Assembly (NCBI GenBank): GCA_963820435.1
Contig: CAWGAC010000020.1
Location: 23,523-87,522, forward strand
Direction of reading: 5' to 3'
Source of the DNA: an uncultured Spirochaetota bacterium
GTDB lineage: Bacteria > Spirochaetota > Spirochaetia > SZUA-6 > Fen-1364
Length of the DNA stretch: 64,000 nt
Of this stretch, positions 12,243 to 32,360 are shown in pieces (positions within the stretch are counted from its first letter, which is position 1; every line of letters begins with the position of its first letter). The translations under genes were made by a program, and so were the position numbers. The notes below the pieces were generated by a model. It searched no databases. It was not told the DNA's origin and saw nothing but the letters and a program-made list of their open reading frames with translations.

Positions 12243-12317
12243 GCGGGAAGTATATCACGGAAATGAAGCGCTCCGGGGAGTCGACAAATAGGGTATATTA
12301 TCCGGGGAAGGGAAAAT

Positions 12318-13899: not shown

Positions 13900-14065
13900 G
13901 TCCCAGCCTCCGCAGAGCATGATACCGTGAGGCCGGCTAACTCGACGAGGACCGGCCCGGGCGCGTTCTCAGCTGTTTCCCTAATTCACTCGTTTTTGTT
14001 GTCCGTTGCCAGATTCCGGAGCCCTTTGGGACGCCTTGCTCAACTCAAGGTGCGTGATAATCAAG

Positions 14066-14088
14066 AAGGCGGCACTTCTGCCGCCTTT
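14066..14088. terminator. bidirectional intrinsic terminator (GC hairpin GGCGGCA-CTTC-TGCCGCC flanked by T-runs on both strands)
   Basis: Perfect 7-bp GC stem with a 4-nt loop. TTTTAT follows on the + strand and a U-rich stretch follows on the - strand, immediately after the tRNA-Glu 3' end. Confidence 0.6.
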
Positions 14089-14160
<72 letters not shown>

Positions 14161-14617
14161 ACACCCAGGTTGCGGGCTCACGTATAGCCTCCGAGGCTGT
14201 TTTTGTCAAGGGTTTCGAGGCGCCGGACAGAGGTGCCGGAGGGTGGTGACGCGCAGGGGCGTCCTGGTGTAGGATGCATGACACAACATTGGAGGAGGCC
14301 GTATGGCGAAGGTCAGCTGGAACCGGACATGGAGCATCAAGATGAGAAAGAAAAGCCGGGGAAAAAAGGCAAGAACAGGAACCGGAAGAAGAAATAGGTC
14401 AGTGTCCCCGTCTTCCCGGCAGACGTTGCACTCCAGCGACGACTCGACAATGCGGACCCGCTCAACGCCTGGAGATTCAATCTGAACTATTTCCCCATAG
14501 AAATACCTGCACCTCCAAAAACATGAAGACCGCTTGTAGACCCCTAAGGTATTCGTCGCCCCGAATGGCATTCGCTCACCCAAAGCTTGCATAGGAAAGA
14601 GTTGACCAGATGGGTGT

Positions 14618-15118
14618 CTACAGCTGTGCCTGGCAAGCCGGACAGGTTTCCGTGCCTGCATTCGGCTGATAGGGGACGACCCCGCCGCGGCTGAAACGTC
14701 CAATTACGCCCTGCCCTTCGGTTGAGGTGAGCCACCGCAGGACCCGCAGCGCAGCGTCGAATCGGGGCATGCGACCAGCGCCGGGGTTCAAGGCGATGAT
14801 GCTGAACTGCTCCTGCGGGCCCGCCGCCATCACACGCAGCATCATAGCTCCGACCCCCTCGCGCACGAGATTTTCCGCCTCGGAAGAATCGACGAAGATA
14901 GCGTCGACTTCTCGCGCGCGGGCGAGCTGGATGACCTGGGCGTTCCCCGCCACTTTCCACTCCACAGAAAGGCCGGTGCGGGTCTTCAGAAGGGGTTCAA
15001 CGTAGGACAGGAAACCGGATGCCTGGAGAGAGCTTGAAGCGCCAACGACAACGAGGTCTTCAGCGGGAGCGTTGAAAGCCGCGCAGAGGATTACCAGGCC
15101 AGCAAGCAGTGCTTTCAT
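14618..15118 (-). CDS. small periplasmic substrate-binding-domain protein (PBP-like, 166 aa, with signal peptide)
   Basis: Signal peptide MKALLAGLVILCAAFNAPA. Half-size PBP-like fold, last gene of the ABC operon. C-terminal CPAC motif. Confidence 0.45.
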   Translation of the reverse strand: MKALLAGLVILCAAFNAPAEDLVVVGASSSLQASGFLSYVEPLLKTRTGLSVEWKVAGNAQVIQLARAREVDAIFVDSSEAENLVREGVGAMMLRVMAAGPQEQFSIIALNPGAGRMPRFDAALRVLRWLTSTEGQGVIGRFSRGGVVPYQPNAGTETCPACQAQL

Positions 15119-15122
15119 TGTG

Positions 15123-16106
15123 TCAGATCCTCCTTCGAGCGATCAGGATCTGGTTCAGCAGGACGGCGCCAACAAGGATCACACCGAGGATGCCCAGCTG
15201 CCAGATCGGCTGGATGCCGGAGATGTCCATGCCGTTGTACAGCATCGTGATGATGACGAGCGCCAGGACAACGCCGCCGATCGTGCCCTCCCCGCCCTTG
15301 ATGCTCACGCCGCCCAACACGGCGATGGTGATCGCCTCCAGCAGGTAGCTCGATCCGATGTCGGGTCGCGCGCTTGCGACCCGGGAGGTGATGATCCAGC
15401 CGGCCAGGGCGCAGAGGAATCCCGAGAGGGTATAGACGGATATCCTCACGCGACGCACGCTGATACCCGAGAATCTGGCCGCCGTCTCGTTGCTCCCCAC
15501 TCCGTAGAGTCTCCGGCCGAAGGCCGTCCTGTTCAGGAGGAACAGGAGGACGAGCACGATCGGAATGAGAACGCACAGGACCTGGAAGGGGATCTCGAAA
15601 ATCCTGAACTGGCCCAGGAAGTAGAACGAGTCGCTGAAGTTTGACACCGGCATCGGGTTGGCGCCGAATCGGGGATCCACGGCGATCAAAAGGGCCAGCG
15701 AGCTGTACCCATACATGGTGGCAAGGGTCACGATGAGAGGCGGGATCATGGTGTAGCTGATAAGGACGCCGTTGAGGTAGCCCATGAAGGTTCCCGCGGC
15801 AAGCCCGAGGGGCACGGCAAGCGCCATGCTCATGCCGGCCCTGCCGATGAGCACGCCAATGACCATCGCGGCCAGGGACATGATGGAGCCAACGGAGAGG
15901 TCGATCCCGCCGCCCCCGGAGAGGATCACGAAAGTTTCCGCGAGGGCAAGGAGCCCCAGCTCCACCGCGTACTGTGTCATGTTCGTGAGGTTGTAGAGGG
16001 TGAAGAAATCCTTCACGAACACGGCCAGGAGCAGGAAGAAAAAGACGAACAGCACGGCGAGAAAGATCATCCTGTTGCCGATGATCCTGTCAAGGGTTCC
16101 TTTCAT
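15123..16106 (-). CDS. sugar ABC transporter permease (CUT2, RbsC/LsrD-like)
   Basis: 327 aa, intact. Multi-TM protein of the BPD_transp_2 family. Confidence 0.85.
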   Translation of the reverse strand: MKGTLDRIIGNRMIFLAVLFVFFFLLLAVFVKDFFTLYNLTNMTQYAVELGLLALAETFVILSGGGGIDLSVGSIMSLAAMVIGVLIGRAGMSMALAVPLGLAAGTFMGYLNGVLISYTMIPPLIVTLATMYGYSSLALLIAVDPRFGANPMPVSNFSDSFYFLGQFRIFEIPFQVLCVLIPIVLVLLFLLNRTAFGRRLYGVGSNETAARFSGISVRRVRISVYTLSGFLCALAGWIITSRVASARPDIGSSYLLEAITIAVLGGVSIKGGEGTIGGVVLALVIITMLYNGMDISGIQPIWQLGILGVILVGAVLLNQILIARRRI

Positions 16107-17053
16107 GGCCTTGCTCCCCTCGCGCGAACGATGTCGATGAGAACGGCGACGATGATGAGCCCGCCCGTGACCAGTCCTTCGCTGAGGGCGGGGATGTTGA
16201 GGAGCACCATCCCATTCTGAATCAAACCCAGGAGCGCCGCGCCCAGGAGGCTCCCGACCAGTGTCCCTTTACCGCCGAGAATGCTCGTACCGCCGAGGAC
16301 AACGGCGGCAATGACCTCCAGCTCGAAGCCCGTTCCCGAGTTGGTCTGCACGATTCCGGTGCGGGCAACGTAAATGAGGCCGGAGATTCCCGCCAACGCC
16401 CCGGTGAGGGAATAGACGAAGAGGTTGGTCCGGTTCAGGTTGACTCCCGAGACCCGCGCCGCATCGGCGTTGTTGCCCATGGCGTACACGGCGCGCCCCT
16501 GCGAGCGCGTGGCGAGGAAAACCGAAAAGAAGGCGATGAGCACGAGGGCGATCCAGAAGGGAATGGGAAGCGAGAGGAACCTGCCCAGGCCCAGCGGCGT
16601 GATGGTCCGCGGGACACCCGACACCCAGCGCCCCCCCAGCACGCCGAAAAGGAGCGCGCGGATGATGTTCATCGTGCCCAGCGTGACGATGATGGGGGGG
16701 ATGTTGCCGTAGGAGATGATGACGCCGTTGAGCATGCCCACGGCGAACCCTGCGGCAAGAGCCGCGACGACGATCACGGGCGCTGACGCATGCGCCATGA
16801 GGAGCTTGCCGGCAACGACCGAAGCGATGCCGAGAGCCGATCCGACCGATACGTCGATGCCGCCCGTCACGATCACCAGTGTCATCCCTATGGACACGAT
16901 CGCGATCCCGGAGAGCCCGAGGAGCGTGTTGGAAATGTTACTCGTCGAGAGGAAGTTCTTGGTCGTCAGGGACAGGACGACGGCCAGCACGATGATGACC
17001 CCGAGAATCGTCACCTCACGCATCTGCAGGACGCGCCTGACTGTTGTCTTCAT
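16103..17053 (-). CDS. sugar ABC transporter permease (CUT2, RbsC/LsrC-like)
   Basis: 316 aa, intact. BPD_transp_2 family. 4-bp overlap with its neighbours. Confidence 0.85.
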   Translation of the reverse strand: MKTTVRRVLQMREVTILGVIIVLAVVLSLTTKNFLSTSNISNTLLGLSGIAIVSIGMTLVIVTGGIDVSVGSALGIASVVAGKLLMAHASAPVIVVAALAAGFAVGMLNGVIISYGNIPPIIVTLGTMNIIRALLFGVLGGRWVSGVPRTITPLGLGRFLSLPIPFWIALVLIAFFSVFLATRSQGRAVYAMGNNADAARVSGVNLNRTNLFVYSLTGALAGISGLIYVARTGIVQTNSGTGFELEVIAAVVLGGTSILGGKGTLVGSLLGAALLGLIQNGMVLLNIPALSEGLVTGGLIIVAVLIDIVRARGARP

Positions 17054-18579
17054 GGCGCGCCCTCCCGGCCCGCTTCTTCCGAGAGCATGCGCTCTCCGAT
17101 TGCCGCGCGCAGGAGGTTTTCAGACGTGATATCCCCGGATTCGAACTCTCCGGTGATGGCGCCTTCGTGCATGACGATCACCCTGTCGCACAGCTTGAGA
17201 ATCTCGGGCAGCTCGGAGGAAATGATGAGAACCGCCATTCCCCGCTCGGCAAGACGCGCGATCATGTGGTGGATCTCGCTCTTGGCGCTCACGTCGATGC
17301 CGCGCGTCGGCTCGTCCAGGATGAAGATCCTCGGGTTGACGCCCAGCCATTTGGCCACGACGACCTTCTGCTGGTTGCCTCCGCTCAGACTGTAAATCTT
17401 CGAGTCCAGGCTCGGCGTCTTGATCGAGAGGTCCCGGACATATGCCTCTCCGATCTCACGCTCCTTGGCACGGTCGACGCCCCCGAAGGCCGCCGCGATG
17501 TCGCGGAGCCTGGTAATGGTGATGTTGTAGGCCGTGCTGAGGATGGGAAAAAGCCCCTGGACTTTCCTGTCCTCAGGAAGGTAGGCGATGCCGTGGCGCA
17601 TGGCTTCTTCAGCCGAGGAGAAGCTCACCTGCCGGCCGTCCAGAAGGATTTGTCCGCTGTCGGGCCGGAGCACACCAAAGATGCACTGCGCAACTTCGCT
17701 CCTGCCCGATCCCACGAGGCCGGAGAATCCCAGGATCTCTCCCTGGTAGACGTCGAAGGAGATGCGGGAGAACCACCCGGCGAGAGAAAGAGAGTTCACG
17801 GAAAGAATGGGCGTATCGGATTTCTTTCCGGCGTGCGCGACCTCCTCGACGAGGAGCTTCCCCGCCATCAGGCCGATGATCCGCTTGGCATCGACCTCCC
17901 GCGTGGGGAACTCTCCCACTACCTCACCGTCGCGCATGATAGTCACCCGGTCTGTCTGGGCAAAGATCTCCTCCAGCCGGTGGCTGATGTAGACCACGCC
18001 GACCTGGCGCTCCTTGAGCTTGGCAATAATGGAAAACAAACGTTGGGTTTCGTGCTCGGTCAGGATGGCGGTAGGCTCGTCGAATATGATGACCCGGGCA
18101 TCGTACGCAAGCGCCTTGGCGATCAGCACCTGCTGTTGCAGGCCCACGCTCAGGGCGCCCATCCTCTCCGACATGAGCTGCGTGGAGATCCCCAGTGATT
18201 CGAAGAGCTCCCGCGCTTTTCGGTTTTCTGCGGCCCAGTCGATTCCCCCGAGCCGATTCTTCAACTCCCGGCCGAGGAAGATGTTCTCCAGCACGCCCAG
18301 CTCGGGATAGACCATGGGCTCCTGGTAGACGGCGGAAATACCGATCTCCTGGGCCTTGCGGGGCGAATCGATGGCGACCTTCCTGCCCTTGTAGTGGATC
18401 TCCCCTTCGTCAGGGGTAAGGACGCCCGAGATCATCTTTATCAGCGTGGATTTGCCTGCGCCGTTCTCGCCGACCAGCGCATGCACTTCGGAGGCGTCCA
18501 CGGTGAAATTGACGTTCCTGACCGCGGCGACTCCACCGAAGTTTTTCGAGACACCTCGGCACTCAAGTATGGTATCCAT
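17050..18579 (-). CDS. sugar ABC transporter ATP-binding protein, duplicated ABC domains (RbsA/MglA/LsrA-like)
   Basis: 509 aa. Two Walker A motifs (GENGAGKST; GLVGSGRSE) and two ABC signatures (LSVGLQQQV; LSGGNQQKV). Confidence 0.92.
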   Translation of the reverse strand: MDTILECRGVSKNFGGVAAVRNVNFTVDASEVHALVGENGAGKSTLIKMISGVLTPDEGEIHYKGRKVAIDSPRKAQEIGISAVYQEPMVYPELGVLENIFLGRELKNRLGGIDWAAENRKARELFESLGISTQLMSERMGALSVGLQQQVLIAKALAYDARVIIFDEPTAILTEHETQRLFSIIAKLKERQVGVVYISHRLEEIFAQTDRVTIMRDGEVVGEFPTREVDAKRIIGLMAGKLLVEEVAHAGKKSDTPILSVNSLSLAGWFSRISFDVYQGEILGFSGLVGSGRSEVAQCIFGVLRPDSGQILLDGRQVSFSSAEEAMRHGIAYLPEDRKVQGLFPILSTAYNITITRLRDIAAAFGGVDRAKEREIGEAYVRDLSIKTPSLDSKIYSLSGGNQQKVVVAKWLGVNPRIFILDEPTRGIDVSAKSEIHHMIARLAERGMAVLIISSELPEILKLCDRVIVMHEGAITGEFESGDITSENLLRAAIGERMLSEEAGREGAP

Positions 18580-18672
18580 GGCTCCGCCCGCCCTTTCGCC
18601 AGACCGAGGCGCACGTGAGACGGGACGGGAGGCGCCACGCGTCGTGACGCCTCCCCCTTCGGGATTCAGGAT

Positions 18673-19662
18673 CTAGAAGCTGAAATTGTCGACGTTCGAC
18701 TCGTCGAAGACCTTCGGCGGTCCGAGGACGAGCATCTTGTCCTTTGCAACGAATGACGGCTTGGTCTCGATGCCCTTCACCGTGTACGTCCTGCCATTGA
18801 CGAACTTATTCTTGTCCAGCAGGTACTTCGCTGCCCATACGGTCAGGTAACCGAGGTCGACGGGATTCCATAGCACGAAGCTCTTCACGGTCCCGTCCTT
18901 TATGTACTTCGACATCATGGAGGGAACCGAGATTCCCGTCGCGAAGATCTGACCGGACTTGCCCGCCTGGGACACCGCCTCCGCGACGCCGGGAGCCGAA
19001 GTGCTGCACTCTCCGATCACGCCCTTCAGGTTGGGGAACGCGTTGATGAGGTCCTGCATCACGTTGATGGCCTGCTGCACATCCTCTTCAGCATAGCGGA
19101 TCGTGACGAGCTTCATCTTGGGGTACTTGGCAAGCTGCTGTTGCTCGTACAGGATCCACGTGTTCAGGTTCCATGCGGTGGGGCCGCAGGAGACGATGGC
19201 AAACTCGCCTTCCTCACCCATGGCCTTTGCCATCTCGTCCATGGTGGTGAACCCGATCTGGTCCTGGAGAGCCTGGTTGACGAACACCTCCCGCACGTCC
19301 TGCGCGCCGTCGGTGTCGCTTGTCAGGACGACGATGCCCCTGGCTTTCGCCTTCTTCAGGACGGGCGCGATAGCCGCCGGGTCGTTCGGAGCCACGGCAA
19401 TGGCGTTGACGCCGCGGGTGATCAGGTTGTCGACGATCTCCGCCTGCTTTGCAACGTCAGCCGTGGTTGGACCGGTGTAGATGAACTCGACCCCCAGGTC
19501 CTTGGCAGCCTTGTCCCCTCCGTCCTGCATCGCATTGAAGTATGGAATTCCGATCAGCTTTGGCACGAATGCGATCTTCCACTTTTTCTGTGCCATGGCC
19601 GATGGAGCAGCGAGCGTGAAGACCAGTACGAGGGCGACCGGAAAGAAAAGAAATTTCTTCAT
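18673..19662 (-). CDS. periplasmic sugar-binding protein (Peripla_BP_4, RbsB/LsrB-like)
   Basis: 329 aa. Signal peptide MKKFLFFPVALVLVFTLAAPSAMA. Ribose/galactose-type binding fold. Confidence 0.88.
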   Translation of the reverse strand: MKKFLFFPVALVLVFTLAAPSAMAQKKWKIAFVPKLIGIPYFNAMQDGGDKAAKDLGVEFIYTGPTTADVAKQAEIVDNLITRGVNAIAVAPNDPAAIAPVLKKAKARGIVVLTSDTDGAQDVREVFVNQALQDQIGFTTMDEMAKAMGEEGEFAIVSCGPTAWNLNTWILYEQQQLAKYPKMKLVTIRYAEEDVQQAINVMQDLINAFPNLKGVIGECSTSAPGVAEAVSQAGKSGQIFATGISVPSMMSKYIKDGTVKSFVLWNPVDLGYLTVWAAKYLLDKNKFVNGRTYTVKGIETKPSFVAKDKMLVLGPPKVFDESNVDNFSF

Positions 19663-19740
19663 TCCTCTACCTCCTGCATTACTTGAATTTGCATCGACTT
19701 AGTCGCGTTGTCAACCGTCCCCCCGCGTCAGCCAGGCCAG

Positions 19741-20160
19741 TCAACCGCTATGGGCCGGGCCGCGAGAAGGCCCGTCCCGTTCGCCTTCCTCGACCAGCTC
19801 CCCTCGCCACCGGGAGATCGCGCCGAAATCCACCACGCGGGTGAAGCCCAGGTCGTCGAGAGTCTTTTTGGCGATGGCGGAACGCCGCCCCGAGGCACAG
19901 TAGACGATCACCAGCGCAGACCGCTCCCCCGTGGCGAGCTTCCCCGCGATGATGGAGACAGGGAAGTTGACGGCGGTGGGGATATGCCCGGAGGCATACT
20001 CCTCCGGCGTCCGCACGTCAACGAGAATGTACGGTTCGGACTTCTCTGTGATCAGGCGGGACAATGCATCGGGGTCCGAAAACTGGTTTTCCATTGCACA
20101 GGCAGCGACCGCATTCGAACAGAGGGCAGCGGCGATCACGAACAACATGACTCTTTTCAT
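19741..20160 (-). CDS. secreted rhodanese-domain sulfurtransferase
   Basis: Signal peptide. Rhodanese motifs ILVDVRTPEEYASGHIPTAVN and active-site IVYCASGRRS. Confidence 0.85.
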   Translation of the reverse strand: MKRVMLFVIAAALCSNAVAACAMENQFSDPDALSRLITEKSEPYILVDVRTPEEYASGHIPTAVNFPVSIIAGKLATGERSALVIVYCASGRRSAIAKKTLDDLGFTRVVDFGAISRWRGELVEEGERDGPSRGPAHSG

Positions 20161-20423
20161 GAGCGGGCTCCTTCCCCCAGGGGCTTTTCTGCGTCTTAGC
20201 GCAAAAGCCGCGTTCTATCAATCCCTGTCCCCGGCGCACGTGGCGTTCCCGCTGCGCCGTCGTGAAAGCGACTGAGTGGATGCGGCCGGCCCGCTCCGTG
20301 AAACTTCAGAGAGGCTGCTGAGACACATGATTGAGCTGCTGCGCAGCTACAGTCTTTCGGGAGCCTCAGCGGTCCACGCGGCGCGGATGTCTTGATCCCA
20401 CATTCTAATTTCTTGTTTTCAGA

Positions 20424-20722
20424 TGAGAGATGGCCTCGCATGCTTCGCTTGCCCTCGCTCGCGATCATCTCGATTTTCAGGCAAATGGTCCTAATTCTGG
20501 TCCTACGCAAGGAGCACAGCGTGAAAAGCTAAGGCCGCCAACGAACATATGAATCAGCTGCGCCCCTCGGTCATGGGGGGGCACAAGTTCAGACACGCTG
20601 ATCATTTCTTCGCCCTACCCTTATAGCAGAGCACCCCATCGCGTTCATGCGAATAGCGGCACTTCGCAAACCCGGCCCGTCTTCACGATTGCGTGGCAAC
20701 ATAGGTTTATCACGCGATTGTC
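20424..20722. repeat. ~300-bp repeat family, copy 1 (no adjacent tRNA fragment)
   Basis: About 85-90% identical to 24885..25195 by direct alignment. Shared blocks: cctcgca.gcttcgcttgccctcgctcgcg, ggccgccaacgaaca.atgaatcagctgcgcccctcggtcatg.gggggcacaagttcagacacgctgatcatttcttcgccctacccttatagca and gaatagcggcacttcgcaaaccc. Confidence 0.85.
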
Positions 20723-20830
20723 AAAAGGTTTCTCTTTCAAATAATCGGCCCCAAAGGGCGCAAATTGACGCGGTGACAAGAAGCCCGGCAACAGGAGCCC
20801 GGTCCCTAGCCCACGCGGGGTAAAATCGGT

Positions 20831-23800
20831 CTATTCTGTTGTGCCGCCCGCCGCGAGCTGACCCCAGTAGTTGTTCCCCCAGGTCCAGACCGTGCCGTCG
20901 CTCTTGAGCGCAAGTGTGTGGTAAAGCCCGATCGCGATCGCCGCTACCCCTGAGAGACCCTGCGCCTGCGCCGGTAGGAAACGGTTCGTGGCGGTGCCGT
21001 CGCCGAGCTCGCCCTGCCGGTTGTCGCCCCAGCCCCAGACCGTGCCATCATTCTTGAGCACAATTGTGCGGTTGGCGCCTGCCGCGACCGCTACTACCCC
21101 GGAGAGACCCTGTACCTGCGCCGGCACGGAGCGAGCGGCGCTGCTGAGGCCAAGCTGACCTTCGCGGATCCACCCCCAGGTCCAGACCGTGCCGTCGCTC
21201 TTCAGCGCAACCGTGTGCTCGTATCCAGCCGCGACCGCGACTACCCCGGAAAGACCCTGCACCTGCACTGGAACGGAGCGGTCCGCCGTGGTGCCGTCGC
21301 CAAGCTGGCCTAACCGATTCTCCCCCCAGGCCCAGACCGTGCCGTCGCTCTTCAGCGCAACTGTGTGGGAAAAACCTGCCGCGACCGCGACTACCCCGGG
21401 GAGACCCTGGACCTGCACTGGCACGGAGCGGTCCGCCGTGGTGCCGTCGCCAAGCTGGCCTAACCGATTCTCCCCCCAGGCCCAGACCGTGCCGTCGCTC
21501 TTCAGCGCAACTGTGTGGGAAAAACCTGCCGCGACCGCGACTGCCCCGGGGAGACCCTGCACCTCCACCGGCACGGAGCGGTTCCTCGTGCCGCCGTCAC
21601 CGAGCTGGCCGTCACGGTTCCACCCCCAGGTCCAGACCGTTCCGTCGATCTTGAGCGCAACCGTGTGATGGCCCCCTGCCACAATCGCCTTTATCCCGGA
21701 AAGACCAGGGACGAGGAATGGAAAGGATTGCTGTGTCCAGTTGGCGGCCCCAACTTCCCCGGAACTGTTCAGACCCCAGCAAAAGACCGTGCCGCCAGTC
21801 TGCAATACTGCGGAATGGAGGTCACCGGCTGCGATCATGGCTATTCCGGAAAGATCCGGCACCCGGGCCGGCTTGGATCTGACCGAGGTGGTTTCATAGC
21901 CCAACTGGCCCTTGTCATTGCCACCCCAGGTCCAGACCGTGCCGTCATTTTTCAGCGCAACGGTGTGGGAAAACCCAGCCGCGATCGCGAGCACTCCTGA
22001 GAGACGGCTAAGGCCTCCGTCACCAACCTGGCCATATTCGTTATTCCCCCAGGCCACGACTGTTCCATCGTTCCTCAGCGCAACGGTGTGAGAGTATCCC
22101 GCCGCGACTGCTATCACCCTCAAGAGACCCCACACCTGTACCGGCACGGAACGGTTCGCAGTGCTTCCGTCACCAAGCTGGCCCCAGTCATTCTCCCCCC
22201 AGGCCCAGACCGTGCCGTCGCTTTTGAGCGCAAGCGTGTGAACGGCGCCTGCCGCGACCCCTGCCACGCGAGAGAGATCTTTGACCTGCACCGGTTTTGA
22301 ACTGTCCCTTATGGTACCGTCACCAAGTTCGCCATATAAGTTTCGACCCCAGGCCCAGACCGTGCCGTCATTCCTCAGCGCAACGGTGTGGAAAAGCCCA
22401 GCCGCGATCGCGGCTACCCCGTAGAGACCCTGCACCTCCGCCGGCGCGTAGCGATTCGCGGTGCTTCCGTCACCAAGCTGGCCATGATCGTTCTCCCCCC
22501 AGGCCCAGACCGTCCCGTCGTTCTTGAGAGCAAGGGTGCAATAGTCCCCCGCCGCAATCGCCGTTACCCCCGAGAGATTCGTGACCTGAACCGGCTTGAA
22601 GTGCGCCTGGGTGGTGCCGTCACCTGGCAGGCGCAGGAGATCCAAACCCCAGGACCAGACTGTCCCGTCGCTCTTGAGCGCAACCGTGTGGGCTCCTTCG
22701 GCGGCAATCGCCGTAACCCCTGTGAGCCCGGGAACTTGCGTTGGTGTTGGGCGGTTCGTCGAGTTGCCGTCACCTATCTGACCAGACGTGTTGTCCCCCC
22801 ATGCCCACACCGTGCCGTCATTCTTCAATACTACGGTATGCCAAGAGCCCGCCGCGACCGCCGCCACTCCTGAGAGACCTGTGACCTGGTGCGGTCTGTG
22901 GTGTTCAACCGATTCCGTCGCCGCGAAGCCGGCGTTGATTCCAACCCCAAAACGATGAGGCGGCCGATCGAGCACGAGCTCAATGTCCTCGCTCATGGCA
23001 GATCGATCCATCCGAGCCTCAAGACGCGTCAGGTATATCCCGGCGCCTTCCGGGAAGGGGTTTTTCATCAGCCTGCCAGCGACCTTATGAGAGTCGGGTT
23101 CCTGGTAAGGCCCCTTCCACAGAACGGCCAATCCCCGACCGTCGCTCCCCGCGGTCTCCCGAATGCAGCCTTCCACGTATTTTTCGACATCCACCGATCC
23201 GGGCACTACTCTCTTGAACTCTATAGGCGTTGTCTCACGATTCAACGAAGAGACCGTGCTCTCGGCGATCACATACAGAGTGATCCTCGCAGCATTGACA
23301 GTGCTAACCGAAGAGATACGCAGCGGGAAAATGAGGCGGTCATGGCGGTATCTGATCGTGAACGGCGGGAGAAGCTCATTCTCGTAGTATCGCTTCTCGC
23401 TTGGCTTCAGTTTGACCGCGACAAAGTTCCAATCCCCGTGGATATAGCCATCGAGGACCTCCTGAGCCGCAGGATTGATTTGATAGCCGTTTTCCTTCAT
23501 CCAGCTCAGAAGAGCCAATGCGTCCGTCGCTCCGAGAATGCTCACCTCGTAATGTTTTAGGGTCACGCTATCGTGGGGTCTGACCCCGCCAGAACTCACC
23601 TTTGTTTCAGCGGCACCTTTGTTGTGAACCAGGATGCCCGCCTTGTGAACCGCGTAATTGTGATGGCCTTCGACTTCAAGATTGAACACCTCGACCCTCT
23701 CCTGCCGACTCGAAAGGCCTGTGACGATAAGCCCCTTGCCGCTTATCTCCTTCAGCACGTCACCTTCTCTTAGGTCGCGGGCTTCCACCCATCGCCCAAG

Positions 23801-24451
23801 CACCCCCATCCTTTGTTCTTCTTTCGGGACGTCTCGCGGGGCGGGACGGCTATCGAGTCGGTCTCCGCGGAGGACACAGAAGGGGTGGTTCACGGTGGCA
23901 CGGATCGAGATTTGACCCACCCGGAGGGTGATCATGTCACCCTCGTACTGGATCGACAGGCGCCTGAGGACCCTCGCGAGGGTCCACTTTCCGGTCGCTA
24001 TGTCGCACCCTTGGACCCGTGTCCCAGCCCCGATGCTTTCGATGGCCCGAGGTCCGTCCGCCGTGAGCACCTCGGTTCCGACAGGGAAGCATCCGCCAGA
24101 AAAGGTGCGGACTACGGGCGTCGTGTGCTGATCGAGGAACTTGAACGCGGCTTCCCCGCTCTCGACAGCTTCTGTCACATCCTCGACGGCGGGAGGGACC
24201 GGTGTGGGAATGATCCAGCCGAAGTCTTCGCCCCCGCCGGTGTATCCCGTGGAGAAGGTCATGCTGATCTCGCTGCCATTCTTGATGATGATCGCCCGCT
24301 GGTCGGCGCTCACAGCCACTGACCGTGGGCTGAAGTACCCACCATCCCCCGAGGCCCGGGGGGTGGGAAGCAAGGCCAGACCAACGACCATCAATCCGAT
24401 CCATTTTCCATTTTTCACATTTCGTTTTCCTCGACGCAGAAGATTAATCAT
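20831..24451 (-). CDS. giant secreted protein: signal peptide + DUF2330-like domain interrupted by an intein-like Hint (BIL-type) domain + ~16 RCC1 beta-propeller repeats
   Basis: 1232-aa ORF 20831..24529 (the annotated start at 24529 is TTG; the first ATG is at 24451, followed by signal peptide MINLLRRGKRNVKNGKWIGLMVVGLALLPTPRASG). Contains a GGYF...FGWIIPTPVPP motif, Hint blocks A/B/F/G, and repeated GTVWAWGxNxxGQLGDG units. Intact, no frameshifts. Confidence 0.85.
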   Translation of the reverse strand: MINLLRRGKRNVKNGKWIGLMVVGLALLPTPRASGDGGYFSPRSVAVSADQRAIIIKNGSEISMTFSTGYTGGGEDFGWIIPTPVPPAVEDVTEAVESGEAAFKFLDQHTTPVVRTFSGGCFPVGTEVLTADGPRAIESIGAGTRVQGCDIATGKWTLARVLRRLSIQYEGDMITLRVGQISIRATVNHPFCVLRGDRLDSRPAPRDVPKEEQRMGVLGRWVEARDLREGDVLKEISGKGLIVTGLSSRQERVEVFNLEVEGHHNYAVHKAGILVHNKGAAETKVSSGGVRPHDSVTLKHYEVSILGATDALALLSWMKENGYQINPAAQEVLDGYIHGDWNFVAVKLKPSEKRYYENELLPPFTIRYRHDRLIFPLRISSVSTVNAARITLYVIAESTVSSLNRETTPIEFKRVVPGSVDVEKYVEGCIRETAGSDGRGLAVLWKGPYQEPDSHKVAGRLMKNPFPEGAGIYLTRLEARMDRSAMSEDIELVLDRPPHRFGVGINAGFAATESVEHHRPHQVTGLSGVAAVAAGSWHTVVLKNDGTVWAWGDNTSGQIGDGNSTNRPTPTQVPGLTGVTAIAAEGAHTVALKSDGTVWSWGLDLLRLPGDGTTQAHFKPVQVTNLSGVTAIAAGDYCTLALKNDGTVWAWGENDHGQLGDGSTANRYAPAEVQGLYGVAAIAAGLFHTVALRNDGTVWAWGRNLYGELGDGTIRDSSKPVQVKDLSRVAGVAAGAVHTLALKSDGTVWAWGENDWGQLGDGSTANRSVPVQVWGLLRVIAVAAGYSHTVALRNDGTVVAWGNNEYGQVGDGGLSRLSGVLAIAAGFSHTVALKNDGTVWTWGGNDKGQLGYETTSVRSKPARVPDLSGIAMIAAGDLHSAVLQTGGTVFCWGLNSSGEVGAANWTQQSFPFLVPGLSGIKAIVAGGHHTVALKIDGTVWTWGWNRDGQLGDGGTRNRSVPVEVQGLPGAVAVAAGFSHTVALKSDGTVWAWGENRLGQLGDGTTADRSVPVQVQGLPGVVAVAAGFSHTVALKSDGTVWAWGENRLGQLGDGTTADRSVPVQVQGLSGVVAVAAGYEHTVALKSDGTVWTWGWIREGQLGLSSAARSVPAQVQGLSGVVAVAAGANRTIVLKNDGTVWGWGDNRQGELGDGTATNRFLPAQAQGLSGVAAIAIGLYHTLALKSDGTVWTWGNNYWGQLAAGGTTE
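21180..21630. repeat. three near-identical 150-bp tandem DNA repeats (one RCC1 blade each) inside the giant gene
   Basis: cccagaccgtgccgtcgctcttcagcgcaac...taaccgattctccccccagg recurs at 21181, 21331 and 21481, period 150 bp. The protein shows ...SHTVALKSDGTVWAWGENRLGQLGDGTTADRSVPVQVQGL... three times. Confidence 0.9.
23621..24091 (-). other. Hint / intein-like (BIL-type) domain, aa 147-303 of the giant protein, inserted within the DUF2330-like domain
   Basis: Cys1 codon tgc at 24089-24091 (CFPVGTEVLTADG = block A). TVNHPF = block B (TxxH). VEVFNLEVEGHHNYAV = block F. GILVHN = block G. The +1 codon is AAA (Lys), checked in the DNA. Confidence 0.75.
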
Positions 24452-24776
24452 ATCACAGATCGCCAATCCGAAGGCGCAGGAACTCGCCCACGGTAGGTGC
24501 CGCGCCGCTAAGCCCGCCGAGGAGGACAAGGATCACAACGGGCGAGCCCCCGGAATATTTACGGCACCGTCGTGACCGGGAACGATAGGGATTAGGAGGT
24601 GGGTGTCAGGCTGGGTTGACCCGATTACTTTGCGTCGACAGCAACTGCAATGAATTGGCGAAATCCATGTTTAGGATTCGCAAGGTAGAGGCTATCCTGA
24701 CCGGGGCGGGGTGTAAGTCTTTGCTGCAGCCCGCGCTCTATGCGCCCCGGCCTGTCCCCTCAAATGAGGGCTTGTG

Positions 24777-24825
24777 TATTGAGCCGCCCCGGACTCGAAC
24801 CGGGGACCCACAGCTTAGAAGGCGC
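24777..24825 (-). repeat. tRNA-Lys 3'-half direct repeat, copy 2 (att-like; acceptor 3' strand through anticodon loop)
   Basis: attgagccgccccggactcgaaccggggacccacagcttagaaggc matches 28766..28812 of the intact tRNA-Lys with 1 mismatch. Confidence 0.85.
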
Positions 24826-25195
24826 TCTGAAGCATTTTCTCAGCGTCGCTCGTGTTCGTCCACCCTCGCTCATGTTCATGTATCGAAAGGAGATAGCCTC
24901 GCAGGCTTCGCTTGCCCTCGCTCGCGCTCGGCTCGCTTTTTCAGGCAATTGGTCCTAAATATGGTCCCACGCAAGGAGCCACAGGGAGAAAAGCTGAGGG
25001 CCGCCAACGAACACATGAATCAGCTGCGCCCCTCGGTCATGAGGGGGCACAAGTTCAGACACGCTGATCATTTCTTCGCCCTACCCTTATAGCAAAGCGA
25101 GCACCCCATCGCGTTCCTGCGAATAGCGGCACTTCGCAAACCCGCCTCATTTTCACGATTCGCGTGGCAATGCGAGTTTATCACGCGTATGAGTC
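24826..25195. repeat. ~300-380 bp repeat family, copy 2 (fused to tRNA-Lys fragment copy 2)
   Basis: Aligns with copy 1 (20424..20722). Its 5' 150 bp also aligns with copy 3 (27652..27805). Contains the GC hairpin gcccctc-ggtcat-gagggggc. Confidence 0.85.
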
Positions 25196-25573
25196 AAGGG
25201 GAGGAGGGAGTTTCTGACCCAGAAAGGCCGTTGGCATGAGCAGTCGCGCTGCAAGGAGTTGGTCAATATCGGAAATGGCCATTGTGACCTACAGTGTGAG
25301 CAGTTCTCTGAGGCCGCGCATGAGTGAGCGCTGCCAAGAGCGCTTTGCCGTCTTTCCCGCGGACGATGCACAGCAGGCGGGTGGTCTATTACTACATGAC
25401 TCGCGATGAGGATGGCACAGGGGGTTCGTGTGAAGCCGGTGAAGTATCACCGGGAAGAAGAGAACGGGAAAGGTCGCCCTCAACCCTTCCCGTTCGTCTT
25501 CCCACATTCTCTATGTCACTTTTCAAGGAGGCCTATCAAGCCCCTTTGCGATCGAGTCGCGCATTCAAGGCTC

Positions 25574-27037
25574 TTAGAACCTCTTTACGCGGAACACTCC
25601 GTCCGTGATGGAGTGCGGCGCAAGCGTGCCCTTCTCAAGGACGATGGCGGAGAAAGTACCTTCGATGAAGCCTCCGACTCCTCCCGCCGTTGTCAGGACC
25701 ACAGTGGCGCTGCCGAAGTTCCCGCTCTTGTCGTAGACGGAGTAGCTGAAATCCGGCGACGCGTATTTGACGTCGTGAATCTCGTGGACCCCGTCCGAGA
25801 AGGTGTATGTCCCGGCAGGCGGAGGCTGAGTGCCCGGTTCGCCTATCAGGGTAATCTCTAACTGGGTGGCGTTATCGCTCATGAGTTCCCTGGGCAGCCC
25901 TACTTGAAGTGCAATGATGTGCGTTCTATCGTACACGTGGCCGTCGTGCTCCCAACCAGTCTCCGGGCCTGCCAGCGGAACATTTCCGAACTCCAAAATG
26001 CCTTCTGTGAACTTGACCGGGGTGCCGTCGAACTTGAACGAAGCGAAGTACTCCGACTCCTTTCCTATCTGAAAGCTTGCCGTAGCGCTGCCGGCGCGCA
26101 TCCCGTCCGCCGTGAAGGCCGTCACGTCCAGCCGATAGTACCCCGTATTGAGATCGCTCCCAAAAGTATAGCTCGGCCCTGTTGCCTGGCACACGCCGTT
26201 CAGGTACCACACGTAGAGCACATTCGCCGTTCCATCGCTCACCGACGCAGTTGCCGTCACACTCGTCCCTACTGCAACCGTGGAGGGCACCCCGCTGATG
26301 CTCACCGGTATGGGATTCGCCAGCGCCGGGGTGATGTTCACCACAAGCGTGCCCCTGTTGACATGTGAGAAGTCATAGGCGCCCGATGTGATCTGCCCTG
26401 AGACGATCCGCACCACCTCCACCGCGCCCATGACAGGGAAGTTGTTCTCCATCAATTGCAGCGTCAGGGTGTAGTAGCCCGCCGCTATCGTGGAGCTGGA
26501 ATAGCTGGCCTGGTTGCCCGAGACCGCAAAGTCCAGGCTTGGAGCCGAACCGCTGGGGGCAGCGGATAGGCCTGAGAGAGGCCTGGATCGAGGGGTTCTG
26601 CAGGGAGGCCGTCCAGGTCACCGATAGATTCAAGTCCCCTGTTCCGCCCAGGGGTGTGACGGTGATGGCCAAGGTGGTGTTCTGCCCCGGGCTGACGGTG
26701 GCGATAGCCTGCCCCTGGCCGATGACGGTGCCGTCTGGTGTTCAGCGCATTCACCGTGACGGTCCAGGTCCCGAAGGGCAGTTCCTCCACGGTCACCGGA
26801 TCTCCGCTGGTCGACCGGGAGAATGTCGCACCGTTGGGGCCGTCGCCGATGACGGTGTAGCTTGCCGCATCCATGCTGATGGGTGGCAGCAGGGTCCTGG
26901 CGTTGATGTTGTTCTTGATCGATACGGTCAGCGATGCGCTCTTGACCGACGCCACTGGGTTGGGGCAGCCGGCCAGCAGCACGACAAGCGACGCTGCAAC
27001 GCAGACGGCTAATAGTGAGAGACGTCCTGGTTTTCAT
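25574..27037 (-). CDS. large surface lipoprotein with Ig-like/beta-sandwich repeats, frameshifted (>=3 frames)
   Basis: The N-terminus decodes as MKTRTSL|SLLAVCVAASLVVLLAGCPNP only after a frameshift within the first 10 codons. ORFs 26485..26982, 26373..26672 and 25574..26455 tile one protein rich in T/S/V/G beta-strand repeats. Confidence 0.6.
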
Positions 27038-27607
27038 AATTCCTCCTCACTGCTACGGAGGACGGAGCGACGTTCAAGATTGGCCGATCCGCCATTGAGC
27101 AGCAACTTCTCCAATCGTCCTGAGATGGCTCAGAAAAGGATCCGACACATGCCAAGGGCTCACGGTCCTCTTGTTGTCGAATGAATGTATTGGCCAGTTT
27201 AAGATCCGACACACGTCATAGAATTGTGAATCAATCCAAGAGCACCTGACTTGAGTAGCCTGTTCATAGTCTGTTTTCCTTCAACTTTCCGTTCAACCTT
27301 TCGCCTGTAGCTCGATGACTCTCGCTTGGATCATGCAAAGGGGATGCCAAGAAGAGCGGGCAGTGCTTATTCCTTTTAATGAAATGACTTATTGCTCTTT
27401 GCGGGCACGAGATAACATCTCCACCCCTGCAACGTACGTTGCTCTTCTCAACCTGGGTTGCAGGGGGAGAGAGAATAGACAATAAAGTATTTTGTCGAAT
27501 CCAGTTGAGTCAGAGCCGTCCAGATGCCGTTCTTCCAGCAGCCGGGTATCGCGGATAGACCTGACTGTCAATGCTTATTAATTTCTTACATTACAATAAA
27601 TTATATA

Positions 27608-27648
27608 TGATCCGCCCCGGACTCGAACCGGGGACCCACAGCTTAAAA
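27608..27648 (-). repeat. tRNA-Lys 3'-half direct repeat, copy 3 (att-like)
   Basis: tgatccgccccggactcgaaccggggacccacagcttaaaa has 38/38 identity to the tRNA-Lys 3' portion, apart from 1 mismatch in the acceptor strand. Confidence 0.85.
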
Positions 27649-27651
27649 ATC

Positions 27652-27805
27652 GTTTCGAGCCATTTTCTCCCCTTCGCTCACCTTCGCCTACCCTGGGCTA
27701 TGTTCACGCGCTGAAAAGAGATAGCCTCGCAGGCTTCGCTTGCTCTCGCTTGCGCTCGGCTCGCTTTTCAGGGCAATTGGTCCTAAATGTGGTCCTACGA
27801 GAGAG
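27652..27805. repeat. repeat family copy 3 (5' portion only; diverges after ~150 bp)
   Basis: gagccattttctcc...aaagagatagcctcgcaggcttcgcttgctctcgcttgcgctcggctcgcttttcagggcaattggtcctaaatgtggtcctacg aligns with 24826..24975. Confidence 0.8.
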
Positions 27806-28078
27806 GCCGAAATCTAAGGTCCGTGTGCTATAGGTATTCTGGTATTGACATGTGACTTGGCGAGCATACACTGAAGCTAAAATGTGCTGACACGCCTTGG
27901 CGAAGTCTCTCGTGAAGTGAGGTGACTTCGGTGTCGGACTCTCGATCTTGTATTGCCCAACCCTTAAAGCATCGACACCACGTCCTTCCGAAAGATCGCG
28001 GCCCACCTCCTAATCTCGATGGAGTGCGAATGCACCGGGACTTCAAGCACTGTCAAGCAGATTATGTAGGAGAGAAAA

Positions 28079-28521
28079 ATGAGAAAGAATTCTAAGTTTC
28101 TTTTCAAAATTCTTCCATTAGCGTTTATGTAGCGTTTATGAGCGCCCTGACTGTTCTCTCTCTCGCCGGATGCCCACCCCCCCACGAGACTCCCGAATTC
28201 GTCGGTACGTGGTTTGGACAGTTCCCGCAAACTGGGACGGCCACCGTTACGTTTACTGAGACAACGTGTACAATATTTACTACCGGCAATTTCCCTGATA
28301 CTGAGACCGACACTGGAACGATTACATTCGACACATCTCTGAAGCACATCCAATGCGTAGTCGCAACAGTCACACGTACGGGCGGCGGAACGTCGACGAC
28401 AGCGCCGGGAGATACATTCTACATGTTGTACTCTCTCAGCGGCACTACTCTAACGATGGCGTCGAGCAAAACAGGGTACCCCGTTGACCTCAGCGGCGGG
28501 ATGGCGATGACCAAGCAGTAG
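28079..28521 (+). pseudogene. low-GC lipoprotein gene whose N-terminus is disrupted by an 11-bp tandem duplication (tagcgtttatg x2 at 28119..28140)
   Basis: MRKNSKFLFKILPLAFM-stop. After the duplicated unit, ORF 28138..28521 continues MSALTVLSLAGCPPP (lipobox). Removing one unit restores MRKNSKFLFKILPLAFMSALTVLSLAGC. GC is much lower than the genome average. Confidence 0.6.
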
Positions 28522-28768
28522 GGACGGCGACAGCCACAGGAGACGGACTCGCCTTTCTGAGCCGGGTTGCGACCAGGAGGAGAATAAGGAGTTGCCGAGG
28601 TAAGGCAGCGTACGGCTTGCGGCCCTTCCAGGTTCCGGGCCGGAACTGGGCAGGGGATAATCAACTACTGCGCCCACACCGGCGGGCCGTGCTCCTGTCT
28701 CTTGTAAAAAGAGGAAGCGGTGGCCCGGAACCCCCGCACCGCTTCCAAATGCTCCAAATAACTTAAAT

Positions 28769-28841
28769 TGAGCCGCCCCGGACTCGAACCGGGGACCCAC
28801 AGCTTAAAAGGCTGATGCTCTGCCAACTGAGCTAGCGGCCC
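28769..28841 (-). tRNA. tRNA-Lys (anticodon UUU)
   Basis: Reverse complement is GGGCCGCTAGCTCAGTTGGCAGAGCATCAGCCTTTTAAGCTGTGGGTCCCCGGTTCGAGTCCGGGGCGGCTCA. D-arm GCTCAGTTGGCAGAGC, anticodon loop CUUUUAA, T-loop GGTTCGAGTCC, 7-bp acceptor stem. No encoded CCA. Confidence 0.9.
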
Positions 28842-28922: not shown

Positions 28923-30105
28923 CTACCAGCGTATGGCAACATCCAGTGTCGCGCCTGCCCGTGGTCTGTCCCCGAGGTGCGCGCCAAGCTCCTGAGTAAA
29001 GAGGGCGAAATTCAAATCCAGGACGAGCAGCTTCACACCGGCCCCGAATGTCAGATAGCCCTGGTTGAGCCCGGTGCGCAGAGCAAACATGTTGAGCAGC
29101 TTGAGCTCCGCGCCGCCGTGAAGATCATACCAGATCGAGTGGCTGCCCCCCAGGACCCCGCCGAGGTCTTGCAGGTCGACGCTGAGTGAAGGGTCGACCC
29201 AATACTTGAGCGTCCCCAGGTCGGGATGCACGGCAACCCCGATCCCGACATTCATGGGAATCACATACTGGTCCGCCGTCACCGATGTGCCGCCTGGGAA
29301 CCTCAGCGAAGAGCCGAATGTGCTGGAAAAGGTCCCGAAGGTGTTCTCATTGTACTTTGAACTGCGTGCCGCCCAGATCACGCACGGAAAGCCCGAACGT
29401 GAACCAGCCAAGCTCCGCAATAGCGCCCAGATCAATTCCGATCCCCACTCCGTAGAGCGCATCCGCGCTGTTGAGCGGTGAAAGAAGGTCCTGACCATCG
29501 GCAATGGCAGTCAGCATCCCGAGGGCGACGCTGTTCGAGATGGGTGCGTGGACCCTGATCATGGGGCGGATATCTCCCCCCACATGGAGCTTGAACCCCA
29601 GGACGTCGAAGGGAACCGACAGGCCGCCGATGAAGCCGATGGTGGCGGTCAGGTCACCGCTCGCTCCCAGAAGGGTGGATCCGTACAGTGTGGAATCCTC
29701 GATGATCATCATACCAAGACCCAGCCCGTTTCCCACATAGCCAATACCGGCAGACATTCCTATCCCGAACCCTCCTGAGGTGACCTGGTTGTTCAGGAAG
29801 CTCAAGGTAGAAGATGAAGAGCCGGTTCCTGCCATGAACTTCTGGCCCAACCCGATCAGCTCATCCGGACGTGAGTACGCCCACGTGGTGGCTGAGAGAA
29901 GGGTGAAGGAACCTCCGCTGCGGGAGAAACCTGCCGGATTGTAGAAGAAGGAATCATAGCCGTGCGCGTCCGCGATGAACGACCCTCCCCTTCCCATCAC
30001 CTGGGGACTCATGGGAAGGAAAGGAATTTCCGCGATGGTATCCGCGAAAGCAAGGCCGCCGCACAGAAGGGTGATCAGCGCACCGATGAAAAGTATTTTC
30101 CTCAT
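28923..30105 (-). CDS. putative outer-membrane beta-barrel protein, frameshifted near 29350-29500
   Basis: Signal peptide MRKILFIGALITLLCGGLAFA (ORF 29347..30105). The C-terminal part (ORF 28923..29504) has alternating hydrophobic strands and ends in an aromatic residue (...LDVAIRW). Confidence 0.5.
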
Positions 30106-30991: not shown

Positions 30992-32360
30992 TCAATCGAA
31001 CCCGAGGAAGCGGCCGCTGCATTTCCCTGATTCCGATGTAATCCGTGCCCTCGCAATCCTGCCCTCGGCCGCATCAGCGGCAGGGACGCCGCCCACATCT
31101 ACTTTTAAATAGTTCCCTGAGACGCCCCACGCTCTTGTGCCCTCGCCGCCCTCCAGAAGCACCTCCACGTCCCTGCCGACCCACGAACGCGCGTAGGACG
31201 ACGAAGACAGGCGGCCCATCGCACGAAGCACACGTGCTCGCTGATGTCTCGTGCGCTCCGGCACCGCCGGCCTCAGGCCGGACGCGGCCGTGCCTGGCCT
31301 TGGTGAAAAAGGAAAAACGTGCAGGGCTGCGAACGACAGCTCTTCTGCCAGGCCCCGTGTCTCCGCGAACTCGGCGTCAGTCTCGCCCGGGAAACCTGTG
31401 ATGATGTCCGCGGCGATGTATGGATCCTCTTTCGTGTCACGGAGAAGGGCCACCGCCTCACGAATTCTGCCCGGTCAAAGAGCGCCGCCTCATCCTGCCC
31501 AGAACGCTGTCCGAACCGGACTGTGCGGGAATGTGGAAATGGGGGCAGATCCGCTTATGGGCAATCACTTCTCCCAGAGCCTCGGTGATGCATTCCGGCT
31601 CCAAAGAGGAGAGCCGGAAACGGATGCGCTGGGTTGCTTCCAGGAGCACCTGCAGCAGCCGGTGCAGCACGATGCCTTCCGAGCTGTAGGATGCGATATT
31701 GACACCCGTGATGACGACCTCACGGTACCCCAGCTCCTCGAGCTCCACGCCCCTTCGCACCGCTTCCGCGGGGTTGAGGCTTACCGAGGGACCTCGCGCC
31801 AACGGCACGCGGCAATAGGAGCATCGTGAATCGCAGCCGTCCTGCACTTTGAGATAGGCCCGGGTGCGAAAGTTGTGCGCGCTCGCGGTGAGACAGAAAA
31901 TGTCACGGGGTACCGTGACCGGTGAAAAAATGTCACGGGGTACCGTGACGCCCTCACGATCCGCAGTAACTGCGGGACGGCCGAGAATCATCGGCAAATC
32001 GAGGAGGCTCGCCTTTTGCGATTGCGGTATCACGAGGACATTTTCCCCGAGTGATGACAGGGCGCCCGCATCCAGCTCTGCCGAGCAGCCTGTCACAATA
32101 AGCAGGGCGTGTGGCCGGCTGCGCGCAAGGCTGCGGATGAGGGCGCGGGCCTTGTGGTCCGCTCGGCAGGTGACGGTACAGGTGTTGACCACGTAGGCGT
32201 CAGCTTCCTGTTCGAACGGGACGACCGAGAGGCCCTGGTTCTTGAATGAGGAGGCAAGCGCTTCGGTTTCGAACTGGTTCAGCTTGCACCCGAAGGTATG
32301 AAACCCGACCCTGCAACGCCGCGGCCACGGTACCGTCAGCGGTACTCCGTGGCGGCCCAA
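30992..32360 (-). CDS. mtaB: radical-SAM methylthiotransferase (MtaB/MiaB family), frameshifted near 31455, carrying an in-frame ~30-bp tandem duplication
   Basis: N-terminal MTTase domain FHTFGCKLNQFETEA. Radical SAM core CDSRCSYCRVP. C-terminal TRAM region in ORF 30992..31453. Duplicated peptide VTVPRDIF appears twice (31896..31950). Confidence 0.75.

Follow-up and report, generated by a model that had tools for sequence, protein, structure and literature searches.

Recombinase-less islets stacked behind a tRNA-Lys gene in an uncultured spirochete

How did a tRNA gene come to be followed by two further copies of its own 3' half, with a single gene in each of the intervening stretches and no recombinase gene among them? 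The locus that raises this question lies in an uncultured Spirochaetota bacterium, placed by the names of homologues among the Spirochaetia of peat, within a stretch of 64 000 nt (contig CAWGAC010000020.1 of assembly GCA_963820435.1, positions 23 523 to 87 522; hereafter the window, whose own numbering is used throughout). Here an intact tRNA-Lys(UUU) gene (28769..28841, minus strand), recognized by both ARAGORN and Rfam, stands as island anchor at the putative attL side. Distal to its 3' end lie two partial copies of it, fragment C (27608..27648, minus strand) and fragment B (24778..24823, minus strand), and three related non-coding arms, A, B and C. Counted outward from the tRNA gene, the islets so delimited carry a small lipoprotein gene (islet 1), a gene for an immunoglobulin (Ig)-like lipoprotein (islet 2) and a gene for an RCC1-repeat protein (islet 3). 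We think it fairly probable that the locus arose by tandem accretion of related integrative elements that targeted the anticodon loop of the tRNA gene, and that what is left of them are recombinase-less islets resembling cis-mobilizable elements (CIMEs).

The repeats themselves are unambiguous. A 34-nt piece of the tRNA-Lys 3' half occurs exactly three times and in one orientation (24784-24817, 27612-27645 and 28773-28806), and was matched nowhere across 100 shuffles. In ungapped alignment, fragment B, which reaches from the 3' end into the anticodon stem, is identical to the tRNA at 43 of 44 positions, and fragment C, which stretches from that end as far as the anticodon loop, at 40 of 41; the sole mismatch of C sits in the acceptor stem, and that of B changes the anticodon from UUU to UCU, giving the loop CTTCTAA. 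Past the anticodon loop identity collapses, to 46/73 over the full tRNA for B and C alike, and the sequences to the left of the core differ between them (GCGCCTTC at fragment B, CGATTTTT at fragment C). A first-pass annotation of this DNA had described both copies as same-orientation att-like repeats, with coordinates that prove right within 1–2 nt, and had read the tRNA gene as attL and the fragments as attR; that geometry holds, since exact 3'-half copies in the orientation of the gene lie distal to it. Fragment C has the form of an attR-type scar of islet 1, and att-type cores are present on both sides of islets 1 and 2, the core of islet 3 being found on its proximal side only. Two short-read contigs (L001, L014) independently carry fragment C with arm C; fragment B and the RCC1 islet occur in this window only. 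ARAGORN and Rfam report a single tRNA-Lys in the window, with no second tRNA found by Rfam. An identical tRNA-Lys gene is seen in all related contigs, and a promoter-like TTGACA-17-TATTGT stands before it at 28885-28857.

On the anticodon side of the fragments lie the arms. Arm C (27649..27827) comprises about 180 non-coding nucleotides. Arm B (24824..25197) is about 370 nt long, its first ~180 nt corresponding to arm C, at ~82% identity, and the next ~200 nt being common to arm A only, at 92–97% identity. Arm A (20413..20720) is a third copy with no recognizable tRNA fragment beside it, and between 20427-20716 (arm A) and 24890-25187 (arm B) the two are 89% identical over 298 nt, so that the ~300-bp terminal repeat mentioned in the first-pass annotation is real. 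Arm C contains TGGTCCTAA-N3-TGGTCCTACG together with GC-rich CTCGC iterations. All arms hold TGGTCCTAA-N3-TGGTCC, that is, two GGACCA motifs 12 nt apart on the tRNA strand, where 0.05 per arm would be expected; GAGCGA/GCGAG iterations are likewise enriched, and the repeats inside the arms are direct. Stops interrupt all six frames of the arms, none of which is kept from A to B, no Rfam family matches the arms, and RNAalifold on the four fragment-linked copies gave no conserved fold (covariation term +1, no conserved long hairpin); neither a coding role nor an RNA gene is supported. We infer that the arms served as integrase-binding sites.

A relative of the arm occurs at a second locus. Contigs from the same samples (L008, L013, L015 and L036-L039) carry it at 81–84% identity over 130–155 nt, fused there to the 3' half of another tRNA, with the loop CTTCTAA (UCU), as in fragment B, and an Arg-like acceptor end. 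A further contig, L035, adjoins the second-locus contigs via a common AbiE flank and encodes proteins that NCBI names as Spirochaetia. The tRNA-Lys gene and the Arg-like target both have the anticodon stem-loop GCCTTYTAAGCTG; an anticodon-loop class of tRNA integration sites was reportedly described by Williams in Nucleic Acids Research in 2002. The 10.9 kb on the arm side of the second locus contain no integrase; they hold a dipeptide ATP-binding cassette (ABC) operon besides an enolase-family gene.

A third tRNA may have received a relative of the islet 2 cargo. In contig L041 a homologue of the Ig-lipoprotein gene, 85% identical to window 27469-25447 (~2 kb), lies between two 44-nt direct repeats (121-164 and 2521-2564), 2400 bp apart and 98% identical, which look by eye, with no confirmation by a tool, like the 3' half of a tRNA-Val(UAC). 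In the 2.4 kb between them neither an integrase nor an arm of the A, B or C type is present, and the gene runs antisense to the tRNA-like fragments; the link to islet 2 may be just the lipoprotein gene family.

Just past the tRNA-Arg(UCU)-like fragment of the second locus (L036-39) we also observed an AbiEi/AbiEii toxin-antitoxin pair with a CopG-like gene, which in L035 stands just past a different, tRNA-Arg(CCU)-like fragment (loci L037 6743-7051 and L035 ~9050-9125). These positions suggest that a further mobile module of this lineage, the AbiE one, makes use of tRNA sites.

The extent of the island can be read from two sister species (L028, ~86% identical in nucleotides and lying on a contig of 1.03 Mb, and L029), four further sister-species contigs (L030-33) being uninformative because they end before the tRNA. 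In these, tRNA-Lys and tRNA-Glu are 0.4–0.9 kb apart, compared with 14.6 kb in the window; homology with the window ends at 28765-28766, at the 3' end of the tRNA, and restarts at ~14422. Each of the two has one tRNA-Lys gene, without fragments. Positions 14423-28768 are thus accessory relative to L028 and L029, and the 8.4-kb islet array recognized by the first-pass annotation is accessory DNA as claimed, though part of a larger island (~14423 to 28768). A search for a fourth att scar at the distal end (14.2-15.2 kb) found no arm or fragment, so that the att-scar structure is limited to the proximal 8.4 kb.

Within the species this region is where strains differ, and short-read contigs from both sides terminate here. 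Seven same-species contigs (L001-L005, L009, L011) correspond to the window minus 20717-25270, and are without the RCC1 gene, fragment B and one arm; most same-species contigs thus lack the RCC1 islet, and the variation in islet content between strains supports the first-pass annotation. The arm that remains in these strains is a mosaic that resembles A in the middle and B at its inner end. Judging from that junction, loss of the RCC1 islet fits homologous recombination between arms A and B rather than att x att excision; with the indel junction inside the ~300-bp arms and the arm a mosaic, there is no evidence of current mobility of the islets. Strains also diverge at 28571, where the ends of many short-read contigs (L016, L017, L020, L022, L026) start another open reading frame (ORF), MDKSITAVRRFVGLD, and stop ~135 nt into that sequence, which is probably multi-copy; its start, of which 15 codons are visible, may resemble the N-termini of IS110-family transposases. 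At 27828, the inner edge of arm C, two other variants leave the window sequence: L001 and L014 continue into a truncated DUF772 transposase fragment and a gene for a 222-aa protein with, by eye, a signal-like N-terminus, and L021 keeps the small lipoprotein and has other DNA instead of the arm. The earlier claim that the 8.4 kb lack integrases and transposases therefore stands for the window and not for other strains, of which L001 and L014 carry the DUF772 fragment. Islet 1 and the islet 2 stretch (the Ig-lipoprotein gene together with fragment C and its arm) are each ~93% identical between strains, the flanks ~99%.

The explanation that we favour, accretion of anticodon-loop-targeting elements, would run as follows. 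The region from ~14.4 to 28.77 kb would be a genomic island anchored on tRNA-Lys(UUU), its proximal 8.4 kb built by successive site-specific integrations of related elements. Each attP would have carried a copy of the tRNA from anticodon loop to 3' end, and each integration would have restored the tRNA gene and displaced the older 3' half outward. An attR scar would then consist of the element's arm, a putative recombinase-binding P arm with GGACCA and GAGCGA iterations, joined to the displaced host 3' half. If the crossover fell within the anticodon or just 3' of it, as at tRNA integration sites of the anticodon-loop class, fragment B would have an element-derived UCU loop while the live gene kept UUU; the UCU loop is indeed what would be expected if the left part of the core came from attP. 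The recombination modules would later have been lost entirely, one cargo gene being left per islet, and present remodelling would proceed mainly by homologous recombination between the 180–370-nt arms, which would account for the loss of the RCC1 islet in most strains, by insertion sequence (IS) activity and by allelic exchange of surface genes. Divergence within the repeats is consistent with such a history: the tRNA-derived parts of B and C differ from each other at 2/41 positions and their arms at 36/160 (p = 0.007), so that the fragments would be younger than the arms, which fits host-derived fragments beside element-derived arms. We likewise infer an integration of its own for every islet and the former presence of integrase genes. 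The islets resemble CIMEs in that att sites are kept and integration and transfer genes are gone.

A number of observations weigh against this explanation. One is the lack of any trace of the recombinase that it requires. In Pfam searches the main islet ORFs matched only RCC1, DUF2330, Hint and, weakly, PKD; six-frame translations of the non-coding DNA within and next to the islets (3.1 kb) matched no family at E <= 0.1; and the other window ORFs tested are housekeeping genes, with no recombinase among them. The statement of the first-pass annotation that no integrase, excisionase or transposase is present is upheld for the tested islet ORFs and the six-frame translations, and transfer genes are missing from the islets as well. 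Intact elements with an integrase and the same arm, which it had suggested looking for in related genomes, did not turn up in the searches made. An exact scan of species-representative genomes with the arm pattern GCTTCGCTTGCYCTCGCTYGCG gave one chance match only; the eight matches in JGI metagenome contigs comprised two from this locus, three from the second locus and three by chance; IMG/VR held nothing for GCTTCGCTTGCYCTCGCTYGCG, for a second arm pattern or for the tRNA-Lys 3' half; and phage and plasmid records, searched by BLAST with fragment plus arm, yielded unrelated phage tRNA-Arg genes only. These arm scans were for exact patterns, by which diverged arms would be missed, and the two loci that they found are both integrase-less. 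The missing partner leaves the satellite-like character proposed for the islets a speculation. Further points concern the islets themselves. Arm A has no clear tRNA fragment: where one would end, an ATTGAGC marks a possible decayed acceptor end by eye (20329..20345, minus strand), of which ~12/16 positions equal the tRNA 3' end by a hand count without statistics, which is weak evidence. The distal 6 kb are without any att scar, and the P' (tRNA-proximal) sides of the three islets have no common sequence. The contrast in divergence between fragments and arms is lost when the best-conserved arm block is taken (12/92; p = 0.22). Finally, homologous recombination accounts for the one indel documented, and site-specific recombination was not observed.

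These points bear on the rival explanations too. The islets might, instead of being decayed, be working single-gene cassettes without an integrase, each with an attP-like arm and core, which a recombinase encoded elsewhere in the genome or on a helper element excises, captures and stacks at tRNA anticodon loops; they would then form a trans-mobilized, satellite-like or integron-like system that diversifies surface proteins. This we consider possible and on balance unlikely. Such cassettes would be clean, as every islet is (a single gene with short spacers and an arm, and in no frame any debris of a recombinase); the arm is kept across two loci with different tRNA targets and unrelated cargo, L041 has its lipoprotein homologue between tRNA-Val(UAC)-like repeats with no integrase, the layout of the window is also what would result if a circle of fragment B, RCC1 gene and arm had recombined into a resident arm, and cargo alleles are ~7% diverged beside flanks at <1%. 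Yet neither a helper integrase nor a circular or empty-site junction was seen, the sole indel junction lies within arms, which is the mark of homologous recombination, the P' sides lack conservation, exact scans place the arm at two loci only, and L041, with no arm of the A, B or C kind and an antisense gene, may merely hold a paralogous member of the family. We are more doubtful still of the broader proposition that peat Spirochaetia possess a dedicated trans-acting cassette system, combining surface genes, a ~180-nt arm and a tRNA anticodon-loop core. Were it true, cassettes would be stacked at several tRNAs (Lys-UUU, Arg-UCU-like and perhaps Val-UAC-like) in a tRNA-anchored functional analogue of the integron that diversifies the cell surface. 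Integron cassettes are mostly single-gene, promoter-less or autonomous units, each ending in a recombination site. The locus is like them in being an array of single-gene units with a recombination site at the unit end and growth at one end; it is unlike them in that the window has no intI, attI or Pc, no recombinase was found beside the array or in the tested ORFs, the arms are not attC-like imperfect palindromes and the repeated core is a tRNA 3' half.

It seems improbable to us that there were just one or a few integrations, with the module of arm and fragment copied locally and the cargo brought in by homologous recombination or IS. The extra ~200 nt of arms A and B looks like a recent duplication, homologous recombination between arms operates here, IS fragments are found in other strains and arm A lacks a fragment. 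Local copying would have to accommodate arms B and C that are ~18–22% diverged beside tRNA parts that differ at 2/41, each within one mismatch of the live tRNA, as well as the differing core-left sequences; nor can it yield the same arm linked to the 3' half of a different tRNA elsewhere. An error of assembly must be weighed because the window, compared with same-species short-read contigs, has ~1 single-base indel per kb and several split genes, and because the RCC1 islet with fragment B lies between 300-bp repeats and is in no other contig. We nevertheless hold a chimera at this point of the error-prone long-read contig to be very improbable: arms A and B are ~11% different and the flanks colinear, unlike a repeat-mediated misjoin, the RCC1 ORF is unbroken over its 3.7 kb, the end of contig L006 falls within arm A, which two copies of the arm in that sample would explain, and fragment C with arm C is independently confirmed. 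Hardly any credence is due to the idea that the fragments are relics of a tandem tRNA-Lys array whose 5' halves have decayed. A faint D-arm resemblance beside fragment B (GCTCTG, later TCAGC) speaks for it; Rfam and ARAGORN see a single tRNA and the sister species have one tRNA-Lys without fragments. The place of the 5' half is taken by the conserved arm, whose homology extends from B and C to a locus where the fragment is that of another tRNA, so that it is not tRNA-Lys sequence, and we have rejected on these grounds both a tandem array and the reading of the arm as a decayed tRNA 5' half.

Accretion of integrative elements, our preferred explanation, has close precedents. CIMEs and tandem accretion are known from the ICESt1/ICESt3-related elements of Streptococcus thermophilus and the tRNA-Lys composite islands of S. 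agalactiae (reviewed in PMC5704250). There, as here, the att sites at the islet ends comprise the 3' end of the target gene, the islets stand in tandem with the newest by the intact gene, and they have lost integration and transfer genes while keeping att sites and cargo. The spirochete locus differs in that no related integrative and conjugative or integrative and mobilizable element with a cognate integrase was found, in its non-conserved P' sides, and in having one gene per islet and an uncultured host. In Dehalococcoides, tandem islands at ssrA are flanked by a 20-bp repeat of the 3' end of the transfer-messenger RNA (tmRNA) and mostly carry a DsiB serine recombinase module, those without an integration module being read by the authors as CIME-like (PMC3146451). 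Both regions have repeats of the 3' end of a small-RNA gene with a conserved motif just upstream of each repeat, and both are the main site of strain variation; here, in contrast, the tRNA-Lys anticodon loop serves as target, the repeat has 41–46 nt, the arm ~180 nt, and no island has a recombinase. The tycheposon islands of Prochlorococcus are defined by tyrosine recombinase and replication modules, with fragmented integrases among the remnants (10.1101/2020.12.28.424599). They share with the present locus repeated integration at one tRNA, partial tRNA copies between elements and adaptive cargo, and in them extra scattered partial tRNAs are the traces of older events; unlike them, the spirochete islets show no tyrosine recombinase, replication module or integrase remnant. 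The first-pass annotation had set the locus apart from conventional genomic islands. The integrase-less islets that it described are real. Stacks of decayed islets with partial copies of a tRNA or tmRNA between them have been reported before, which makes the locus less unconventional than was held: the tRNA-Lys islet stack is a new spirochete example of a known phenomenon.

As such, the locus adds a spirochete case to known tandem accretion with loss of mobility genes. It shows strain-to-strain variation of the surface repertoire in an uncultured peat spirochete, with one tRNA-Lys gene as landing pad and stacked inserts that would be shuffled via their conserved ends. The conserved arm sequence is a well-defined probe for the missing integrase. 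Proof of mobilization in trans would make the islets a minimal cassette of a new kind; on present evidence they represent ordinary, tidy island decay.

The cargo genes are as the first-pass annotation described them; its statement that the DNA delivers only surface cargo does not extend to the island as a whole, which also has a rhodanese gene and a sugar ABC operon. Islets 1 and 2 have a G+C content of 54–57%, compared with 61–63% in the flanks, a difference that speaks for accretion. The 198 nt that directly follow the 3' end of tRNA-Lys (28571..28768, minus strand) form the P' side of the newest islet, its proximal end; they are ~99% conserved in all same-species strains and absent from the sister species, and include a G+C-rich inverted repeat and then a T run, seen by eye and unlisted in the motif scan. 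The small lipoprotein of islet 1 (28080..28521, plus strand; lipobox LSLAGC; 49–54% G+C in its DNA) matched no Pfam family. In the window, an 11-nt tandem duplication (agcgtttatgt agcgtttatg) at ~28119-28140 puts a stop codon into its signal peptide; in L021 the gene is intact (145 aa).

Islet 2 carries the Ig/PKD-like lipoprotein gene (25574..27037, minus strand; weak PKD match), which falls into three ORFs in the window and is intact in L001, where it encodes 483 aa with a lipobox; between strains the gene is ~93% identical, compared with ~99% for the flanks. The protein belongs to a large paralogous family of Spirochaetia with a conserved N-terminal part of ~320 aa and variable C-terminal domains. 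Upstream of the gene, at 27418-27472, we noticed a 24-nt imperfect inverted repeat (…CCCCTGCAACGTACGTTG / CAACC…GGTTGCAGGGG…), which lies within a 5' region of ~160 nt that is ~86% conserved upstream of paralogues (L040 9687-9845; L041 ~560-640); this region may be a regulatory element common to the lipoprotein family. In L040, a sister-species contig, two tandem paralogues of 612 and 645 aa (10001-13920) have first 300 nt that are 98% identical and diverged C-terminal halves; they lie ~2.2 kb from a tRNA-Pro(GGG), and no tRNA-fragment repeats were found around them.

The islet 3 gene (20831..24529, minus strand) encodes 1232 aa with a signal-like N-terminus, a DUF2330 domain that is split by a Hint/intein-like domain (PT-HINT, Intein_splicing) at residues ~145-305, and after these 12–14 RCC1 repeats. 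Its nearest database homologue is 64% identical, and the one genomic context checked (L034) consists of housekeeping-type genes. Homologues at 44–64% identity keep the DUF2330-Hint N-terminus and end in RCC1 or ankyrin repeats, and the Hint segment is also found in proteins with serpin and other domains.

Three of the genes that are split in the window are intact in relatives, namely those for MiaB (475 aa), for a 393-aa outer-membrane protein by the tRNA and for the 483-aa Ig-lipoprotein, and PTA, KsgA and other genes are split as well (regions such as 30992-32360, 28923-30105 and 25574-27037). These splits are probably errors of long-read consensus or assembly and not pseudogenes. In view of the indel rate and the intact copies in relatives, apparent pseudogenes in this window are not to be trusted, and pseudogenization of the Ig-lipoprotein, outer-membrane protein and MiaB genes was rejected as a probable assembly artefact.

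The distal part of the island (14423..20328, minus strand) holds the rhodanese gene (19741-20160, minus strand), the sugar ABC-transporter operon, in which the gene for a periplasmic sugar-binding protein (18673-19662, minus strand) is accompanied by those for an ABC ATPase and two permeases, and a gene for a 166-aa PBP-like protein. Beyond it, the tRNA-Glu(UUC) gene (14088..14161, minus strand) marks the return of synteny with the sister species. Adjoining this gene, and marking the same point, is a small ORF of 31 codons for a very basic peptide, MAKVSWNRTWSIKMRKKSRGKKGKNRNRKKK (~14304-14400, plus strand as read; L001 9000-9095), which is conserved and in the sister species lies between tRNA-Glu and tRNA-Lys.

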